DNA from: a virus
Lineage: Duplodnaviria > Heunggongvirae > Uroviricota > Caudoviricetes
Direction: 5' to 3' (one strand)
Length of the DNA stretch: 9,974 bases
IMG/VR virus record: IMGVR_UViG_2541047897_000006
Positions 2,372 to 9,364 of the stretch are shown here, piece after piece. Made by a program: the position numbers and the translations under genes. The notes beneath the pieces were generated by a model that was not told where the DNA came from, ran no database searches, and saw nothing but the letters and a program-made list of their open reading frames with translations. The first letter of the stretch is position 1; the number at the start of each line of letters is the position of its first letter.

Positions 2372-3310
2372 ATGAATATTTCCGATATTCGCGCAGGACT
2401 GCGCACGCTTGTAGAAAATGAAGAAACCACCTTTAAACAAATTGCTCTTGAGAGCGGACTTTCTACCGGAACTATCAGTAGTTTTATCAATGATAAGTAC
2501 AACGGGGATAACGAGCGTGTTTCACAAATTCTGCAACGCTGGCTGGAAAAATATCATGCAGTTGCAGAACTACCTGAACCGCCCCGCTTTGTGGAAACGC
2601 AGACGGTAAAACAAATCTGGACAAGTATGCGTTTTGCCAGCCTGACTGAAAGTATTGCTGTTGTATGTGGCAATCCTGGTGTGGGCAAAACCGAAGCGGC
2701 CCGTGAATATCGCCGCACCAATAACAACGTCTGGATGATCACCATTACGCCATCCTGTGCCAGCGTTCTGGAATGTCTTACTGAACTGGCGTTTGAGCTG
2801 GGAATGAATGACGCACCACGCCGTAAAGGGCCACTCTCTCGCGCCCTGCGACGTCGCCTTGAAGGTACACAGGGGCTGGTTATCATCGACGAAGCTGATC
2901 ATCTTGGTGCCGAAGTTCTGGAAGAACTCCGCCTGTTACAGGAATCAACCCGCACTGGCCTTGTGCTGATGGGAAATCACCGGGTTTATTCAAATATGAC
3001 GGGGGGTAACAGAACGGTTGAATTTGCCCGTCTGTTTTCCCGTATTGCAAAGCGCACTGCAATTAATAAAACCAAAAAAGCCGATGTAAAAGCTATTGCG
3101 GATGCCTGGCAGATTAACGGCGAAAATGAACTGGAGTTATTACAGCAGATTGCGCAGAAACCAGGTGCGCTTCGCATTCTGAATCATTCACTTCGCCTTG
3201 CCGCCATGACGGCTCACGGTAAAGGTGAGCGTGTTAACGAAGATTATCTGCGTCAGGCTTTCCGTGAATTAGACCTGGACGTTGATATTTCAACGCTGCT
3301 GCGTAATTAA
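2372..3310 (+). CDS. B: Transposition ATPase / target-DNA activator B (MuB family, AAA+)
   Basis: 312-aa ORF, the same length as Mu B. Walker A motif GNPGVGKT and Walker B motif LVIIDEADHL are present. It lies directly downstream of A with a GAGG RBS. Confidence 0.95.
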   Translation: MNISDIRAGLRTLVENEETTFKQIALESGLSTGTISSFINDKYNGDNERVSQILQRWLEKYHAVAELPEPPRFVETQTVKQIWTSMRFASLTESIAVVCGNPGVGKTEAAREYRRTNNNVWMITITPSCASVLECLTELAFELGMNDAPRRKGPLSRALRRRLEGTQGLVIIDEADHLGAEVLEELRLLQESTRTGLVLMGNHRVYSNMTGGNRTVEFARLFSRIAKRTAINKTKKADVKAIADAWQINGENELELLQQIAQKPGALRILNHSLRLAAMTAHGKGERVNEDYLRQAFRELDLDVDISTLLRN

Positions 3311-3325
3311 GAAGGAGAAGAAATT

Positions 3326-3553
3326 ATGATGGCCCGAAATATAAAAATGGCAACGGATGCGCAGAACTGGTTACAGGCGCGCGGGAGTCATGTAAATGAA
3401 TCATATCTCGGCGTGGCGCGTCCGATTCTTGAAATCACTTACCCACCGGTGGAACTGGTAAAAAGCGCGGTCAGAATTATGGAGCATAAGTCCGGGGTGG
3501 CCCGTTCTGTATGGACGGCCCGTCTTAATGGTTGCCAGATTATCTGGAGATAA
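3326..3553 (+). CDS. kil: Small early protein, probable Kil (host-killing) by position
   Basis: 75-aa ORF with a strong AAGGAG RBS 8 nt upstream. It is the first gene after B, which is where kil (about 74 aa) maps in Mu. The sequence has no diagnostic motif, so the assignment is positional only. Confidence 0.45.
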
Positions 3554-3555
3554 CG

Positions 3556-3786
3556 ATGTGTATTAAAGCTGAAAAATATATTGAATGGGTTAAACACTGT
3601 CAGTGCCACGGGGTGCCGCTGACGACATATAAATGCCCCGGATGTGGTGAACAGATTATGACGCAATGCTCACCCGAAAAGGAAATTCGGGATTCCCTGA
3701 CATGTTGTCCGTGGTGCAGCGCGGTTTTCTTTAAGCAGGTAAAAGGCGCGAAGGTAAAAGCCAGCGCAGTTATTCAGAATCAATAA
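3556..3786 (+). CDS. Cys-rich small protein, putative zinc ribbon (function unknown)
   Basis: The ATG at 3556 is preceded by GGAGA and sits 2 nt after the upstream stop; the ORF track extends the frame to 3532 but the RBS favours 3556. The protein contains HCQCH, CPGCG and CCPWC, with CxxC pairs about 20 residues apart. Confidence 0.65.
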   Translation: MCIKAEKYIEWVKHCQCHGVPLTTYKCPGCGEQIMTQCSPEKEIRDSLTCCPWCSAVFFKQVKGAKVKASAVIQNQ

Positions 3787-3797
3787 GGAGAAACAAA

Positions 3798-4067
3798 ATG
3801 GCAAAGGTTATCTTTGAGTTTACATGGCTGGAAAGTAGTGACGGTTGCAATGGGCGCAGAGAAGTTCTGGATGCAAAAGCATGTCTTGCAGATATCTCGC
3901 CAACGGAAAATACCGGGCCTCATGATTTACTGGCAAATATCGTCCTGACTATGGCTCCTGAAATTATTAAAAAGGCCAAAGATGAGATGCTGACCACTAT
4001 GAAGAAAGTGGGTATGGAAGCTGAATGTGATTTAGTACCACATCCGGTGAATGCGGTTAAACATTAA
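3798..4067 (+). CDS. Hypothetical early protein (89 aa)
   Basis: AAGGAG RBS with 7-nt spacing. The ORF is tightly packed in the + strand early operon. I recognise no motif. Confidence 0.65.
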   Translation: MAKVIFEFTWLESSDGCNGRREVLDAKACLADISPTENTGPHDLLANIVLTMAPEIIKKAKDEMLTTMKKVGMEAECDLVPHPVNAVKH

Positions 4068-4087
4068 TTCGCAAAGGAACGCTGACA

Positions 4088-4507
4088 ATGAACGTCAAAA
4101 TCCGAAATGAAATTCAGGCATTAATCCGAATTCAGGAACGCAATAACAACGGTGGTGAATTACGCGAGTTTATTTGCGCCCGAAAAGTTGATGATTGTGG
4201 TGAAAAGACTTACCTGATTGCTTTCGACCATTACAGCATCTGTGCGCGTTATTGCGGCGAAAGCATATCCCGCGCCATTGCATTTGGCGGTGCGTTCAAC
4301 GTGGATTTATGGGAGTACGTCATGGACCGGGAATACATCTGCGCATCAGACCCTGAAGCCCGTGAAATGTGGCAGCGTATCTGGCGCGATTACCGGTTAA
4401 TGGCAAAAGGCTGGGCGCGCAGCTGTTATTCCTCGCTTGCCCTGAAAGCGGTTCAGTTATCGCTGCGGCATATTCCGGCATCACTGCGCGAGCCTCTGTT
4501 GTACTGA
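4088..4507 (+). CDS. Hypothetical early protein (139 aa), possible Cys cluster
   Basis: AAAGGAA RBS with 7-nt spacing. The stop is immediately followed by the next ORF's start. Cysteines in FICARKVDDCGEKT...SICARYCGES could form a metal site, but this is uncertain. Confidence 0.65.
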   Translation: MNVKIRNEIQALIRIQERNNNGGELREFICARKVDDCGEKTYLIAFDHYSICARYCGESISRAIAFGGAFNVDLWEYVMDREYICASDPEAREMWQRIWRDYRLMAKGWARSCYSSLALKAVQLSLRHIPASLREPLLY

Positions 4508-4807
4508 ATGGTAGCTGACATGAAGTGTAATCGTAAGCGCTGGTCACGCGAAGACCGGGAATTTATCGAGGCCAACGTCGGGAAAATGACCGTTGAAGAA
4601 ATGGCGGAAAAACTGAAAGTCGCCACAACCGCCCTCCGGGCACATGCCAGAAGGCACGGAATATCATTGTGTGCATACCGAATCAGTGAACACGACAAAT
4701 ATTTGTGTCGTGAGCTTTATAAGGAAGGGCTGGCTATTCATGTCATTGCCCGAAAGATGGAATTAAGCAATCGAGCTGTATCCAGCATTGTATACAGCGG
4801 ATATTAA
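4508..4807 (+). CDS. Hypothetical small protein with two helix-turn-helix-like segments (putative DNA-binding)
   Basis: 99-aa ORF abutting the upstream stop (TGAATG). Two internal segments (MTVEEMAEKLKVATTALRAHARRHGI and LAIHVIARKMELSNRAVSSIVYSGY) have an HTH-like hydrophobic/charged pattern. The start could be ATG 4508 or ATG 4520; neither has a strong RBS. Confidence 0.6.
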   Translation: MVADMKCNRKRWSREDREFIEANVGKMTVEEMAEKLKVATTALRAHARRHGISLCAYRISEHDKYLCRELYKEGLAIHVIARKMELSNRAVSSIVYSGY

Positions 4808-4826
4808 TTAACAGGAGCTTTAATTT

Positions 4827-5351
4827 ATGGCTAAACCAGCAAAACGTATCAAAAGTGCCGCAGCGGCTTATGTGCCACAAAACCGCGATGCGGTGATTAC
4901 CGATATTAAACGCATCGGGGATTTACAGCGCGAAGCATCACGTCTGGAAACGGAAATGAATGATGCCATCGCGGAAATTACGGAGAAATTTGCAGCCCGG
5001 ATTGCACCGATTAAAACCGATATTGAAACCCTTTCAAAAGGCGTTCAGGGATGGTGTGAAGCGAACCGCGACGAACTGACAAACGGCGGCAAAGTGAAGA
5101 CGGCGAATCTTGTCACCGGTGATGTATCGTGGCGGGTCCGTCCACCCTCAGTAAGTATTCGTGGTATGGATGCAGTGATGGAAACGCTGGAGCGTCTTGG
5201 CCTGCAACGCTTTATTCGCACGAAGCAGGAAATCAACAAGGAGGCGATTTTACTGGAACCAAAAGCCGTCGCAGGTGTTGCCGGAATTACGGTTAAATCA
5301 GGCATTGAAGATTTTTCTATTATTCCGTTTGAACAGGAAGCCGGTATTTAA
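4827..5351 (+). CDS. gam: Host-nuclease inhibitor Gam (Mu Gam, Ku-like DNA-end-binding protein)
   Basis: 174-aa ORF with an AGGAG RBS 9 nt upstream. The protein (MAKPAKRIKSAAAAYVPQNRDAVITDIKR...) matches phage Mu Gam as I recall it, in both length and sequence. Confidence 0.93.
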   Translation: MAKPAKRIKSAAAAYVPQNRDAVITDIKRIGDLQREASRLETEMNDAIAEITEKFAARIAPIKTDIETLSKGVQGWCEANRDELTNGGKVKTANLVTGDVSWRVRPPSVSIRGMDAVMETLERLGLQRFIRTKQEINKEAILLEPKAVAGVAGITVKSGIEDFSIIPFEQEAGI

Positions 5352-5448
5352 TACCACCATTAATATTTAATTAATTCACATTCGTTTAATTATGGCGCGA
5401 TGCGTCAGGGGACTACTCGCGCCTTAATCAGAACCGGAGAGAATGAAA

Positions 5449-5997
5449 ATGACAGCATGTGCTTATTTTAAACTGAGTGACACAGCCGCTAACGCTTATA
5501 CGATTCGCTGGCTGAAAGACGTTTCTGTTAAGCGTGGTGAGATTATTGCGTCATTACAGCAATCAGTGAAAGCAAGTGGTGTGTCTTTGTCTGGTGACAA
5601 AGGGCCTGAAAGGGTTACGCGTGTCTGGTTTAACCGTTTACCACCGGAAGGATGGGAGATTAAATCAAGGACACTTTTCATTGGTGATATTCAGTTATGG
5701 GGCGCAATGCCGGATATGACAATACCGGCAGGCCGTGAGTACGGGAAGCTCATCCGGGACTGTGAAAATCAGCTCGAAAAACACCCGGATTTTCCGGGCT
5801 GGCTGTGCAATGAACTTAACGTGGCTACCGACGTTGACCTGTTTGACATCAGGTCCGTGTGGAAAATGCACCACAGCCGTGACGGATTCAGCATTTTGTT
5901 TGCAGTGTACCTTCTGGCTGGCGAAGTGAAGGGACCGGTTCCCGCCGAATGCCAGCGCATTAAACATTCTGAATTTGTGGCGCTGACGGAGGAATAA
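5449..5997 (+). CDS. Hypothetical early protein (about 182 aa)
   Basis: The frame opens at ATG 5443, but the GGAGAG RBS at 5436-5441 is correctly spaced (7 nt) only for the in-frame ATG at 5449. It is the first gene after the 91-bp gam-distal intergenic gap. I recognise no motif. Confidence 0.65.
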   Translation: MTACAYFKLSDTAANAYTIRWLKDVSVKRGEIIASLQQSVKASGVSLSGDKGPERVTRVWFNRLPPEGWEIKSRTLFIGDIQLWGAMPDMTIPAGREYGKLIRDCENQLEKHPDFPGWLCNELNVATDVDLFDIRSVWKMHHSRDGFSILFAVYLLAGEVKGPVPAECQRIKHSEFVALTEE

Positions 5998-7585: not shown

Positions 7586-8137
7586 ATGAATCGCACATCC
7601 CTGATTAAATTAATCCATGTCGCCCGTCGGGAGCTACAACTCGACGACGACACTTACCGCGCTTTTCTGATGCAGAAAACGGGCAAAATCAGTTGCCGCG
7701 AGCTGACGGTTACGCAACTGGAACAGGTGCTCAATGCCATGAAAGAACGCGGCTTTAAGAAGCAGAATAAACACCCACGCCGTCGGTTTAAGGGGCATGT
7801 CACGCCCCGTGAGAAGGTGTATAAAATCTGGCAGCAGATGGCAGAAGACGGTTTTATTACCGATGGTGGTGATGTGGCGCTGGACAGATATGTTCAGCGC
7901 CTGACAGCGAAACGTAATGGCGGACAGGGTGTTTCCACGCTGGCGTGGTGCCACGGAGAATCGTTGCAGGTTGTGCTTGAAACACTCAAGCAGTGGCACA
8001 TCCGCTGTATTCGTGAAGCCTTTTCCCGTCACGGGCTTCCGTTGCCGGTCAGTCCGTCCGGGCGTGAACTGCGCGGCTATGATGCCATGACGGCGGCTTA
8101 TGCCCATGCCAGAAAGACACGGAGGATGGCACAATGA
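7586..8137 (+). CDS. gemA: GemA-like protein (Mu gp16 family)
   Basis: 183-aa ORF with a GGAGGT RBS. It lies immediately upstream of mor and overlaps it (ATGA), as gemA does in Mu. The call rests on position and size; I cannot search the sequence. Confidence 0.75.
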   Translation: MNRTSLIKLIHVARRELQLDDDTYRAFLMQKTGKISCRELTVTQLEQVLNAMKERGFKKQNKHPRRRFKGHVTPREKVYKIWQQMAEDGFITDGGDVALDRYVQRLTAKRNGGQGVSTLAWCHGESLQVVLETLKQWHIRCIREAFSRHGLPLPVSPSGRELRGYDAMTAAYAHARKTRRMAQ

Positions 8138-8523
8138 CGGAAGATTTATTTGGTGATTTGCAGGATGACACCATTCTGGCACATCTTGACAATCCCGCAG
8201 AGGATACGTCACGCTTTCCGGCACTGCTGGCGGAGCTGAACGATTTACTGCGCGGGGAATTGTCCCGGCTGGGTGTTGATCCTGCCCATTCACTGGAGAT
8301 TGTTGTGGCTATCTGTAAGCATCTGGGCGGTGGTCAGGTCTACATTCCACGCGGTCAGGTTCTGGACTCGCTGATTCGGGATTTGCGTATCTGGAATGAT
8401 TTTAACGGTCGCAACGTCAGCGAACTGACCACCCGTTATGGTGTCACTTTCAACACGGTTTACAAGGCTATTCGCCGGATGCGACGGCTGAAATACCGCC
8501 AGTACCAGCCCTCACTTCTGTAA
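8134..8523 (+). CDS. mor: Middle operon regulator Mor (transcription activator of Pm)
   Basis: 129-aa ORF with a GGAGGA RBS 7 nt upstream. The protein (MTEDLFGDLQDDTILAHLDNPAED...) matches Mu Mor as I recall it. Its C-terminal half is a paralogue of the C protein downstream: compare GGGQVYIPRG...IWNDFNGRNVSEL with GGRQFYIPCG...LYCQFNGRNMEEL. Confidence 0.9.
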   Translation: MTEDLFGDLQDDTILAHLDNPAEDTSRFPALLAELNDLLRGELSRLGVDPAHSLEIVVAICKHLGGGQVYIPRGQVLDSLIRDLRIWNDFNGRNVSELTTRYGVTFNTVYKAIRRMRRLKYRQYQPSLL

Positions 8524-8528
8524 ACAGT

Positions 8529-8553
8529 AAAGCCGGTTAATCCGGCTTTTTTT
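8529..8553 (+). terminator. Rho-independent terminator at the end of the early operon
   Basis: AAAGCCGG-ttaat-CCGGCTTT stem-loop followed by a run of seven T residues, 6 nt after the mor stop codon. Confidence 0.8.
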
Positions 8554-8559
8554 ACGTCC

Positions 8560-8640
8560 TCAATATCCTGTGATGAATAACCGTACCGGGGGAAATCATC
8601 ATGGGTAAAGGCTGGAATGCATCCTTTCATCTTGGCAGAC
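8560..8640 (+). promoter_or_regulatory. Probable middle promoter Pm with Mor-binding dyad (position approximate)
   Basis: An imperfect dyad, TGATGAATAA...N...AAATCATCA, spans about 8571-8601 just downstream of the early terminator. In Mu, Mor binds a dyad upstream of Pm, which drives C. I cannot place the -10 element or the +1 from sequence. Confidence 0.4.
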
Positions 8641-8941
8641 GTGAGCGGCTGTGTCAGGAGGTTTTGCACCGTGTCGCCGGTGGGCCACGGCCTGCGCCCC
8701 GCGACTATACCGGTCATGATGGCACCCACGGAAGTTATTACATGAAAGGATGGCAGTCGGTTGATATGCCGGAAATTCTTCACCACTGTCAACGTTATAA
8801 GGAAAAATATTGTGTACAGAAAATTCAGTGATGAATGTTTCGGGCCATTCGCGCTGCTCACCGCAATAAAAGTGATCGCCCTGGTGGTTCTGATAAGCAT
8901 CAGTGCCGTGGTGTCTTTCTGTCTGTTAACCGGGGGAAAAT

Positions 8942-9364
8942 ATGCAGCATGATTTATTTGAACACGATCCGGCAATTCGCCAGTTAATCGGGCATATTGA
9001 TAACATCCCGGCCCCGGAACTGGAATCACGCTGGCCCCGTTCGGTGGTTGATCTGATTGATGTTCTGGAAAACGAACTGAAACGCCAGAACGTCAGCAAT
9101 CCCCGTGAGCTTGCCCGTAAACAGGCCGTTGCCCTGTCCTGTTTTCTGGGCGGACGGCAGTTTTATATCCCCTGCGGCGATACTATCCTGACCGCGTTAC
9201 GCGACGATTTGCTTTACTGCCAGTTCAATGGTCGTAACATGGAAGAACTGCGTCGCCAGTACCGCCTGTCCCAGCCGCAGATCTACCAGATTATTGCCCG
9301 CCAGAGAAAGCTGCATACACGGCGTCATCAGCCTGATCTGTTCTCACCTGAAAGCCAGAAATAA
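8942..9364 (+). CDS. C: Late transcription activator C
   Basis: 140-aa ORF whose sequence (MQHDLFEHDPAIRQLIGHIDN...) matches Mu C as I recall it, and which is paralogous to Mor. It is followed by a hairpin terminator and then lys. Confidence 0.9.
   Translation: MQHDLFEHDPAIRQLIGHIDNIPAPELESRWPRSVVDLIDVLENELKRQNVSNPRELARKQAVALSCFLGGRQFYIPCGDTILTALRDDLLYCQFNGRNMEELRRQYRLSQPQIYQIIARQRKLHTRRHQPDLFSPESQK

Follow-up and report, generated by a model that had tools for sequence, protein, structure and literature searches.

The window, a stretch of viral DNA 9,974 nucleotides long, carries five tightly packed plus-strand open reading frames (ORFs) of 75, 76, 89, 139 and 99 aa, which fill positions 3326 to 4807, as the ORF list and the sequence both bear out. 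They are anchored upstream by the transposition ATPase gene B (2372..3310, plus strand), which is 99-100% identical to B of Mu and D108. The downstream anchor is gam (4827..5351, plus strand), with matches to Pfam PF07352 Phage_Mu_Gam (E 4e-42) and phrog_491. By megablast, the window is 98.9% identical to Mu_3F6 and 93-98% identical to Mu, D108 and Yersinia Mu-like phages. Judged by this similarity, it is a phage or prophage of the Mu family, a relative of Escherichia virus Mu_3F6. A preliminary description of the same DNA had placed the ORFs in the B-to-gam interval of Mu, within its semi-essential early region. This placement holds, and the interval is where that region begins.

The first ORF is kil (Mu gp5; 3326..3553), which encodes 75 aa, or 74 aa from a second ATG at 3329. 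It begins 16 nt downstream of the stop codon of B, an arrangement common to close relatives. On the same plus strand follow gp6 (Mu E5; 3556..3786), which is 76 aa long from its ATG and 84 aa long in the ORF list, where it begins at an upstream TTG at 3532, and gp7 (the Mu E6 slot; 3798..4067), an acidic protein of 89 aa with a pI of 5.3. Next come gp8 (Mu E7; 4088..4507), with 139 aa, and gp9 (Mu E8; 4508..4807), a basic protein (pI 9.4) of 99 aa, or of 95 aa from an alternative ATG at 4520. The gaps between each stop codon and the next start, from kil through to gam, are 2, 11, 20, 0 and 19 nt.

The preliminary description treated these ORFs as uncatalogued and credited only the first with a positional assignment. 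Neither statement stands. The genes are the long-catalogued gp5-gp9 of Mu, and named positional orthologues of all five, Mup05-Mup09 (formerly kil and E5-E8), exist in Mu, D108 and SfMu. Since the five ORFs are the known kil, gp6, gp7, gp8 and gp9, the result is a rediscovery of the Mu semi-essential early region and nothing new. With high probability, the interval belongs to a transposable phage of the Mu family and is the promoter-proximal part of its semi-essential early region, holding five small accessory genes in the order kil-gp6-gp7-gp8-gp9.

Clear Shine-Dalgarno motifs precede kil (AAGGAG, 3312-3317), gp6 (GGAG) and gp7 (AAGGAG), and a moderate one precedes gp8 (AAGGAA). The sequence before gp9 has no such motif, and the ATG of gp9 follows the stop codon of gp8 without a gap (TGAATG). 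The strong ribosome-binding sites ascribed earlier to the whole set are thus present for four of the five ORFs, gp9 being the exception.

ORFs this short could be chance open frames, or some or all of them could be decaying remnants in a defective prophage. The lack of a confident structure for gp8 and the occurrence of frameshifted copies in databases (P0024) would agree with such an origin. Selection speaks against it: the median dN/dS against distinct homologues is 0.14 for kil, 0.24 for gp6, 0.35 for gp7, 0.17 for gp8 and 0.13 for gp9, compared with 0.09 and 0.05 for the flanking genes B and gam. Purifying selection acts on all five ORFs. Moreover, each has a PHROG family match (E 1e-28 to 1e-96), and the ORFs are kept in viable phages, namely Mu, D108, SfMu and the Yersinia phages. 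The dN/dS values lead to the rejection of chance ORFs, and an origin by chance or decay is so improbable as to be effectively refuted. The exact sequences of the five proteins are found again on many public contigs.

The statement that the proteins have no recognisable enzymatic motifs is borne out for all five, in which neither transmembrane segments nor enzymatic domains were found. Promoter-like and terminator-like sites are not in excess within the region, and an Rfam search returned no match. In Mu, the early transcript spans ner to C (PMC3820752). Together these three observations argue for a single operon, in which kil, gp6, gp7, gp8 and gp9 would share one long early transcript with ner, A, B and gam.

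The gene content of the interval can be followed across relatives in an architecture table of 83 Mu-like loci. The most persistent gene is kil, present in 70 of the 83 and located immediately after B in close relatives; gp9 is present in 61. Only 27 of these loci carry gp6, as two alleles about 78% identical. In Mu-like relatives with a B protein about 80% identical, a small protein whose PHROG bears the annotation “host nuclease inhibitor” lies in the B-gam interval. The content is modular: kil and gp9 persist, gp6 and gp8 come and go, and the body of gp7 is exchanged as a cassette.

The exchange of gp7 is visible at the DNA level. Identity to Mu is 36-52% over positions 3800-4050 and 96-100% on both sides, and junction alignments put one boundary of the swap behind about codon 8 and the other at the stop codon. 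The gp7 position is therefore a cassette-swap slot, in which the coding body is exchanged between conserved junctions. The window protein shares 28% identity with gp7 of Mu and 40% with that of D108. It matches phrog_2230 (E 6e-36) and does not reach phrog_10252 at E 0.01 or better, while Mu gp7 is a member of phrog_10252 and matches phrog_2230 no better than E 0.009. By these sequence criteria, the window allele groups with the D108-type family and not with the Mu protein, known as Gnarl2. Of the 47 complete E. coli genomes with this region, 19 carry the window allele. Pfam, NCBIfam and PADLOC scans and a PDB sequence search found nothing for gp7.

Gnarl2 (Mu Mup07/E6, NP_050611) emerged from a functional screen as a host-sensitising accessory gene that alters the O-antigen (PMC12373910; Silas et al., Nat Commun 2025). 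It shifts O-antigen bands downward and sensitises ECOR strains to phage T5 (PMC12373910). In Mu itself, the slot is thus occupied by an accessory gene that scored in a functional screen (PMC12373910), and to this extent the preliminary description is right.

A second gene with a phenotype is kil. Its product matches phrog_2743, “Kil”, over its full length (E 4e-43) and is 99% identical to Mup05, the Kil protein of Mu. Expression of Mu kil kills E. coli, and the cells become spherical (Waggoner 1989, as related in PMC3961180). With this near identity and the phenotype as PMC3961180 relates it, the view of kil as a host-killing function is upheld. Scans with Pfam, NCBIfam and PADLOC found nothing for the gene itself; homologues 81-97% identical carry the precomputed Pfam assignment PF26843.1, which the local Pfam scan did not return for the window protein. 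One database record of a member of the Kil cluster bears the label “Protein cim”.

Structure prediction, proposed in the preliminary description as a check, succeeded for Kil, whose AF2 model is confident (pLDDT 94.3), and failed for gp8, whose model (pLDDT 38.7) is unusable. The modelled Kil fold bears a weak resemblance to a nucleotidyltransferase core, in shape only and without the catalytic residues. In an alignment of 40 Kil sequences, only L16, P40, G69 and W74 are invariant. Conserved catalytic acidic residues of the pattern [DE]x[DE] are absent from this alignment, where positions 36 (E/T/D/Q/R) and 38 (T/D/E/A) vary, and the hG[GS] motif is not fully conserved. Foldseek returned no significant match to the model in PDB or BFVD. 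Searching PDB with the Kil profile gave only designed helical repeats (E about 0.004), which were judged spurious. Kil may then be a compact alpha/beta binding protein with a degenerate nucleotidyltransferase-like core that lacks catalytic carboxylates. It probably binds a host factor of the cell envelope or of elongation, and this binding would produce the spherical-cell killing reported for Mu kil.

The profile searches, likewise suggested as a check, assigned all five ORFs to PHROG families, but in Pfam and NCBIfam they yielded only sub-threshold matches, to zinc ribbons for gp6 and to helix-turn-helix (HTH) domains for gp9. The gp6 protein is 100% identical to Mup06 and matches phrog_3786 (E 1e-40). 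It has the pattern C-P-G-C ... C-C-P-W-C, with C-P-W-C 18 residues after C-P-G-C, that is, two CxxC knuckles at the spacing of a ribbon. A relative in another Mu-like locus (L066) retains CPCC...CPEC. Scores stay below the curated cut-offs for TIGR02605 FmdB (18 vs 31.3 bits), NF047912 (16.8 vs 37) and Pfam Zn_ribbon_ACC (15 vs 24.5), and further sub-threshold models are the zinc ribbons ECs_2282 and RpoP. The weak PDB matches from a single-sequence search are zinc ribbons without exception, none of them significant, and proteins identical to gp6 are labelled RPC12/RpoP in IMG. From its sequence pattern, gp6 is assigned to the zinc-ribbon fold class and to no named family within it. It could serve as a zinc-ribbon adaptor for a protein or a nucleic acid.

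The largest of the five proteins, gp8, matches phrog_3690 (E 4e-96) and has no match in Pfam, NCBIfam, PADLOC or PDB. A profile search of 1.84 billion representatives gave 11 matches, all of them members of this family or fragments; two further, remote homologues are 105-113 aa long. Outside Mu-like phages, the search brought up no distant family. P0024, at first sight a homologue with 45% identity, was rejected as a frameshifted copy. As far as these searches reach, gp8 is an orphan confined to the Mu lineage, without a recognisable domain, and would act as a Mu-specific protein.

The last gene, gp9, matches phrog_323, “transcriptional regulator, D5-like” (E 1.9e-28). Its HTH matches in Pfam and NCBIfam all lie below the gathering scores, the best being HTH_Tnp_1 (20.3 vs 24.1 bits); other sub-threshold HTH matches are to sigma-70 region 4, Cbp1 and PDB 2lvs. 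Neither the single sequence nor a profile of gp9 gave a significant match in PDB. Among PADLOC models, it has only weak HTH-type matches (E 0.003-0.02). The protein contains two HTH-like repeats, and a relative (L057) contains three. Across homologues 45-87% identical, the C-terminal motif LCRELYKEGLxIxxIAxKMELS is invariant. A possible paralogy of gp9 with Mor/C was rejected (hhalign P 0.2). Because of its tandem HTH, gp9 is more likely a DNA binder or regulator than an inhibitor, and the motif suggests a tandem-HTH DNA-binding protein. Such a protein would bind DNA sequence-specifically through its two HTH units and regulate genes of the phage or the host.

These properties bear on the suggestion that the interval holds host-takeover or anti-defence cargo. 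The suggestion is supported in part: it suits kil, and gp7 by position, and it is less apt for gp9 with its tandem HTH. In its full form, it would have every one of the five proteins inhibit a host process or an immune system. The killing of the host by kil (PMC3961180) agrees with this, as does the screen result for Mu gp7, an accessory gene that scored for counter-defence or host sensitisation (PMC12373910). So do the presence, absence and cassette variation of gp6, gp7 and gp8, typical of accessory genes, the “host nuclease inhibitor” PHROG in the same interval of relatives, and the adjoining gam, itself a nuclease inhibitor. For gp9, however, the conserved tandem HTH, a dN/dS of 0.13 and a wide distribution are better explained by a regulator. 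Pfam, NCBIfam, PADLOC, PDB and profile searches found nothing that links gp6 or gp8 to defence or takeover, nor any similarity of the two to characterised inhibitors, and the defence-system models of PADLOC matched none of kil, gp6, gp7 and gp8. In addition, the Gnarl2 effect is exerted at the cell surface and is no help to the carrier phage's own entry. That all five genes are such cargo is possible rather than probable.

Another explanation is that the ORFs other than kil serve the phage's own early programme and account for unassigned genetic functions of the semi-essential region, for example cim, the control of immunity, or arm, amplified replication. They would then act on phage DNA, regulators or the transpososome and not on host defences. 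The DNA-binding motifs of gp9 point in this direction, and so does the zinc ribbon of gp6, of a kind common in nucleic-acid-binding proteins; the cim label in the Kil cluster would also fit. Yet gp6 and gp8 are missing from many otherwise similar Mu-like phages and so are not needed for a core programme, the whole region is by definition dispensable, and no relation between gp9 and the Mor/C activators could be detected (hhalign P 0.2). An own-programme role for these genes is accordingly doubtful.

A more specific proposal can be built on the semi-essential early region with its five accessory genes. The gp7 position would be a dedicated swap slot for one fast-evolving effector superfamily that includes Gnarl2, and the window would hold a third specificity class, directed at a different host surface or defence target. 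Its conserved junctions may be, at one end, the ribosome-binding site together with roughly eight initial codons and, at the other end, the ribosome-binding site of gp8. Kil, in the same proposal, would be a catalytically dead protein of nucleotidyltransferase fold that poisons the machinery of cell elongation, and gp8 a Mu-specific inhibitor with a new fold. As a whole, the proposal is speculative and on balance unlikely.

Mu is a textbook phage, and among its semi-essential early genes phenotypes exist only for kil, from genetics, and for Mu gp7, from the 2025 screen that described Gnarl2. A literature search found no mechanism for Mu kil, gp6, gp8 or gp9, no link to MreB, and no follow-up on the target of Gnarl2. 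No new element was discovered here, and the targets for testing have been sharpened. A confident structure model of Kil with a conserved surface is now to hand. The gp7 swap cassette is precisely bounded, with at least three allele classes, for one of which a phenotype is reported. The gp9 protein may be an unrecognised early regulator with a tandem HTH. Should the alleles of gp7 prove to differ in host specificity, the slot would offer a compact natural system in which to study the remodelling of lysogen O-antigen by temperate phages.

Several known systems offer comparisons for these genes. With Mu, D108, SfMu and Mu_3F6, the region shares gene order, gene lengths and flanks, with B upstream and gam downstream. 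Identity to the Mu proteins is 99% for kil, 100% for gp6, 95% for gp8 and 97% for gp9; to those of Mu_3F6, it is 99%, 99%, 99% and 98%, respectively. The gp7 protein is a different allele from those of Mu and D108 and is identical to gp7 of Mu_3F6.

The Kil proteins of lambda and Rac have their name in common with Mu kil, and they too are products of an early phage gene that is lethal to the host on expression. In sequence, they show no significant similarity to Mu kil (PMC3961180). The outcome also differs: the Kil proteins of lambda and Rac act through FtsZ and make cells filament, while cells expressing Mu kil become spherical, which implies a block of elongation. From the difference in both phenotype and sequence, the label “septation inhibition” that PHROG gives to the Mu Kil family is apparently a transferred name. 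The likeness of Kil to minimal or degenerate nucleotidyltransferase-fold proteins, such as RsfS/Iojap and the cores of the RelA/SpoT small alarmone synthetases, is one of shape only. For gp9, the comparison is with tandem-HTH DNA binders (archaeal Cbp1, PDB 2lvs), sigma-70 region 4 and the HTH of transposases and resolvases, all of them weak matches below the curated thresholds.

The closest comparison for gp7 is Gnarl2 itself. The two proteins differ in PHROG, phrog_10252 for Gnarl2 and phrog_2230 for the window gp7, and the family HMMs of the window/D108 type and of the Mu type do not retrieve each other. They are alike in other respects. Both are small soluble proteins without enzymatic motifs, both lie in the slot between gp6 and gp8, and Gnarl2 is 87 aa and the window gp7 89 aa long. 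They share the N-terminus MAKVI-x-E, their first 7 residues, and a C-terminal His. In hhalign, the window and Mu types align with P 7e-5 to 6e-6 in global mode, the local alignment covering residues 1-13 only. A third family, MAKLIIE...KAH, follows kil directly in phages with a B of only 53% identity; it aligns both with the window/D108 type (81% probability, P 1.2e-5) and with the Mu type (P 3e-4). A combined profile reaches the Mu-type gp7 with a global P of 6e-6, a score also reached by one of 100 column shuffles. These alignments lend weak support to homology between the window gp7 and Gnarl2.

The window gp7 might even be a functional orthologue of Gnarl2, which would shorten or alter the O-antigen of the lysogen or the infected cell and so exclude superinfection or prevent re-adsorption of progeny. 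Only tentatively can this be entertained. The shared slot, the nearly equal size, the common terminal residues, the profile links, weak yet above the controls, and the documented phenotype (PMC12373910) all agree with it. Against this, the identity is 28%, the PHROGs differ, the family HMMs fail to find each other, and much of the similarity signal comes from N-terminal residues beside the recombination junction. Given this identity and the different PHROG, the Gnarl2 phenotype is not simply transferable to the window gp7. Within the swap slot, gp7 would be a fast-evolving host-interaction effector, in the same slot as Mu Gnarl2 and probably of the same superfamily, and the window allele may have a specificity of its own.

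The preliminary description took the five small ORFs between B, the transposition ATPase gene, and gam as candidate host-takeover or anti-defence cargo. This reading is partly supported. The first gene, kil, has a host-killing function, gp7 sits in a slot demonstrated to hold accessory genes, and the interval of relatives includes genes of the nuclease-inhibitor type; gp9, however, looks regulatory. New here are a confident model of Kil, the exact boundaries of the gp7 cassette and its allele classes, with a tenuous link to the Mu accessory protein Gnarl2, and the demonstration of gp8 as a lineage-restricted orphan.

The packing of the region is borne out by the ORF list and the sequence. Five plus-strand ORFs fill 3326-4807: kil (3326-3553, 75 aa), gp6 (3556-3786, 76 aa from its ATG), gp7 (3798-4067, 89 aa), gp8 (4088-4507, 139 aa), and gp9 (4508-4807, 99 aa, or 95 aa from an ATG at 4520). 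The flanking genes are B, with its end at 3310, and gam, with its start at 4827; the spacers between each stop and the next start, from kil through gam, are 2, 11, 20, 0, and 19 nt. The ribosome-binding sites had all been called strong; a Shine-Dalgarno motif is clear upstream of kil, gp6, and gp7 and moderate upstream of gp8, but none is present in the sequence upstream of gp9. The gp9 ATG directly adjoins the gp8 stop codon (TGAATG), and translational coupling of the two genes is suggested. The semi-essential early region is largely uncharacterised and is transcribed from Pe on a long early transcript (PMC3820752). Promoter-like and terminator-like sites show no excess within 3200-5500, and the window contains no Rfam family, which is consistent with a single operon.

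The closest match of the interval is Escherichia virus Mu_3F6 (98.9% identity). Its identity is 93-98% with Mu, D108, PhiR68_1, and a number of Mu-like phages of Yersinia. In these records the annotation from B to gam reads kil/Mup05, Mup06 (E5), Mup07 (E6), Mup08 (E7), and Mup09 (E8). The earlier view that a position can be assigned to the first ORF alone is thus wrong: all five are long-catalogued Mu genes.

Several features indicate that the five are real genes. Every ORF matches a PHROG family (E 1e-28 to 1e-96), and identical proteins occur on very many public contigs, almost always under the name “hypothetical protein”. Nei-Gojobori median dN/dS values, taken against distinct ungapped homologues out of 80 Mu-like viral contigs, are 0.14 for kil, 0.24 for gp6, 0.35 for gp7, 0.17 for gp8, and 0.13 for gp9, with 0.09 for B and 0.05 for gam on the flanks. 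None of the five proteins contains a transmembrane-type hydrophobic stretch. The 90%-identity clusters of a large protein collection group gp7 with gp8 and gp9 with Gam, presumably because some assemblies have genes called as fusions or read-throughs.

To follow the interval across Mu-like phages, ORFs downstream of B were clustered in 83 sequences (the window, Mu, Mu_3F6, D108, and 80 viral contigs) whose B identity ranges from 47% to 100%. The most persistent gene is kil, found at 70 of the 83 loci and mostly directly after B. Next come gp9 (61 loci), gp7-like genes (40), gp8 (38), and gp6 (27). There are two gp6 alleles, about 78% identical, and one whole subgroup is without the gene; several phages keep gp9 but are without gp8. 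Phages of the subgroup whose B is about 80% identical often have an 85-100 aa phrog_1518 protein between kil and gp9. This family (f9; L043:3528 and relatives) matches phrog_1518 at E 9e-36 and is annotated “host nuclease inhibitor”, which places takeover-type cargo in the interval of relatives. The interval is thus a modular accessory array, in line with the preliminary description.

Kil, which shares 99% identity with its Mu counterpart, matches phrog_2743 (E 4e-43). A profile search yielded 96 relatives from Escherichia, Salmonella, Shigella, Vibrio, and Shewanella, all with a precomputed Pfam assignment to PF26843.1; a Pfam scan of the window Kil itself returned no family. An AlphaFold2 model built from a 40-sequence alignment (pLDDT 94.3, pTM 0.80) has a helix at 2-18, strands at 22-27 and 34-38, a short helix at 42-46, and strands at 49-55, 58-67, and 70-74. 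Searched with Foldseek, this model had no significant match: the best PDB hit is at E 0.28, and the best BFVD hit, at E 5.6e-3, is uncharacterised. Only L16, P40, G69, and W74 are conserved in the alignment, with I37, E53, and G57 nearly invariant, and an acidic catalytic pair is absent from it. Model and alignment are read as pointing to a small binding protein whose resemblance to a nucleotidyltransferase is at most one of degenerate shape.

According to Waggoner 1989, as cited in PMC3961180, expression of Mu kil gives spherical E. coli cells, which implies a block in elongation, and the gene has no sequence relation to the Kil proteins of lambda and Rac. Literature searches on the host target turned up nothing newer. 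The Mu-type families phrog_2743, phrog_6381, and phrog_2679 carry the label “Kil protein for bacterial septation inhibition”. Given the spherical cells and the lack of sequence relation to lambda Kil, this label looks like a borrowed, name-based transfer. In its source record, a 68-aa protein of the Kil cluster bears the name “Protein cim”. Mu-like prophages of Vibrio and Shewanella have longer homologues, of 105-108 aa (L074:4151-4471, L076, L080, and L083; P0038, P0039, P0064, and others), that share a conserved C-terminal tail, LNPY(A/S)PELI(A/S)xWPxNF, which the enterobacterial 75-aa Kil is without.

The gp6 protein has nine cysteines, including C-P-G-C followed 18 residues on by C-P-W-C. 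Its matches to zinc-ribbon models (FmdB-type, ECs_2282, YnfU, and RpoP) each fall below threshold, its weak PDB matches are all zinc ribbons, and identical proteins are named RPC12/RpoP in IMG. A zinc-ribbon fold class is clear from these signatures, but gp6 falls in no named family.

The gp8 protein matches phrog_3690 (E 4e-96), with no match in Pfam, NCBIfam, PADLOC, or the PDB. A word-seeded search found only Enterobacterales relatives at at least 75% identity, plus one frameshifted copy. That copy, P0024 (149 aa), is the only apparent 45%-identity homologue, and was rejected as such: stretches identical to gp8 are interspersed with unrelated ones. When 1.84 billion representatives were searched exhaustively with a profile, 11 proteins came back, all family members or fragments save two remote homologues of 105-113 aa, also in phrog_3690; one relative, L041, has a similar short form just downstream of B. 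These searches indicate a genuine Mu-lineage orphan. The AlphaFold2 model is unusable (pLDDT 38.7), and gp8 is read as a soluble protein, probably helical.

A transcriptional regulator family, phrog_323 (“D5-like”), is matched by gp9 at E 1.9e-28, and sub-threshold helix-turn-helix (HTH) matches include HTH_Tnp_1, sigma-70 region 4, Cbp1, and PDB 2lvs. Its alignment contains two repeats, W-x-x-x-(D/E)...GK.T...A..L at the N-terminus and LCRELYKEGLxIxxIAxKMELS at the C-terminus, the latter invariant among homologues at 45-87% identity. The protein is basic (pI 9.4), widely kept, and strongly constrained, and has no detectable relation to Mor/C. Its predicted role is most likely sequence-specific DNA binding, which argues against all five ORFs being inhibitors. 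At L057:6804-7283 and L065, a 160-aa form has the N-terminal HTH repeat duplicated, giving three repeats.

Other variation lies nearby. A 184-aa plus-strand ORF at 5443-5997 (phrog_2260), between gam and the Mup11 homologue, is missing from Mu, D108, and Mu_3F6 and found in SfMu, where it is annotated “DUF5420 family protein”, and in some Yersinia Mu-like phages. It marks a further accessory slot of the insertion/deletion type, next to the kil-gp9 interval on its downstream side. In L039-L058 and L065 (B about 80% identical), tblastn with Mu Gam found nothing within up to 6 kb of flank. There gp9 is followed by a conserved phrog_846 protein (about 205 aa, function not assigned), whose family also follows kil in the group with B at about 50% identity; this protein may stand in functionally for Gam or may simply be another early gene. 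Farther downstream, 8134-8523 and 8942-9364 (both plus strand) encode paralogous Mor/C-type activators, 40% identical and both in phrog_532. About 420 nt separates the two, as with mor and C in Mu. Coding density is lower between them, and a 189-aa antisense ORF at 8460-9029 is probably spurious.

The most informative of the five ORFs is gp7. DNA identity to Mu falls to 36-52% across 3800-4050 and is 96-100% on either side. The upstream junction lies just past about codon 8 (ATGGCAAARGTNAT...), and the downstream junction at the stop codon, before the conserved gp8 ribosome-binding site; the coding body has thus been exchanged as a cassette. The window allele is not rare: of 5,426 complete E. 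coli genomes, 47 have the kil-gp6 region, and 19 of these carry it.

In Mu this position is held by NP_050611/Mup07, which is gnarl2, and the window gp7 occupies the Gnarl2 slot. In a phage accessory-gene screen, gnarl2 shifted O-antigen bands down and raised T5 infection by as much as 1e5-1e6-fold in ECOR1 and ECOR22; that study did not identify a direct target (PMC12373910 and preprint). This phenotype cannot simply be carried over to the window gp7, whose identity is 28% with Mu gp7 and 40% with D108 gp7.

Gnarl2 belongs to phrog_10252, whereas the window and D108 proteins belong to phrog_2230, which Mu gp7 reaches at E 0.009 only. HMMs of the window-type and Mu-type families do not find each other, and their local profile-profile alignment covers residues 1-13 only. 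A bridging family, with proteins of 89-92 aa that start with MAKLIIE and end in KAH, lies directly after kil in phages with B only 53% identical, so the shared N-terminus is a feature of the protein and not just a recombination flank. In hhalign comparisons this family matches the window/D108 type with a probability of 81% (P 1.2e-5) and the Mu type at P 3e-4, against P values of 0.02-0.9 for unrelated control families. The combined profile matches the Mu type at a global P of 6e-6, a score reached by 1 of 100 column shuffles that kept the first eight columns. Tenuous as this link is, the window gp7 is probably a member of the same fast-evolving superfamily as Gnarl2.
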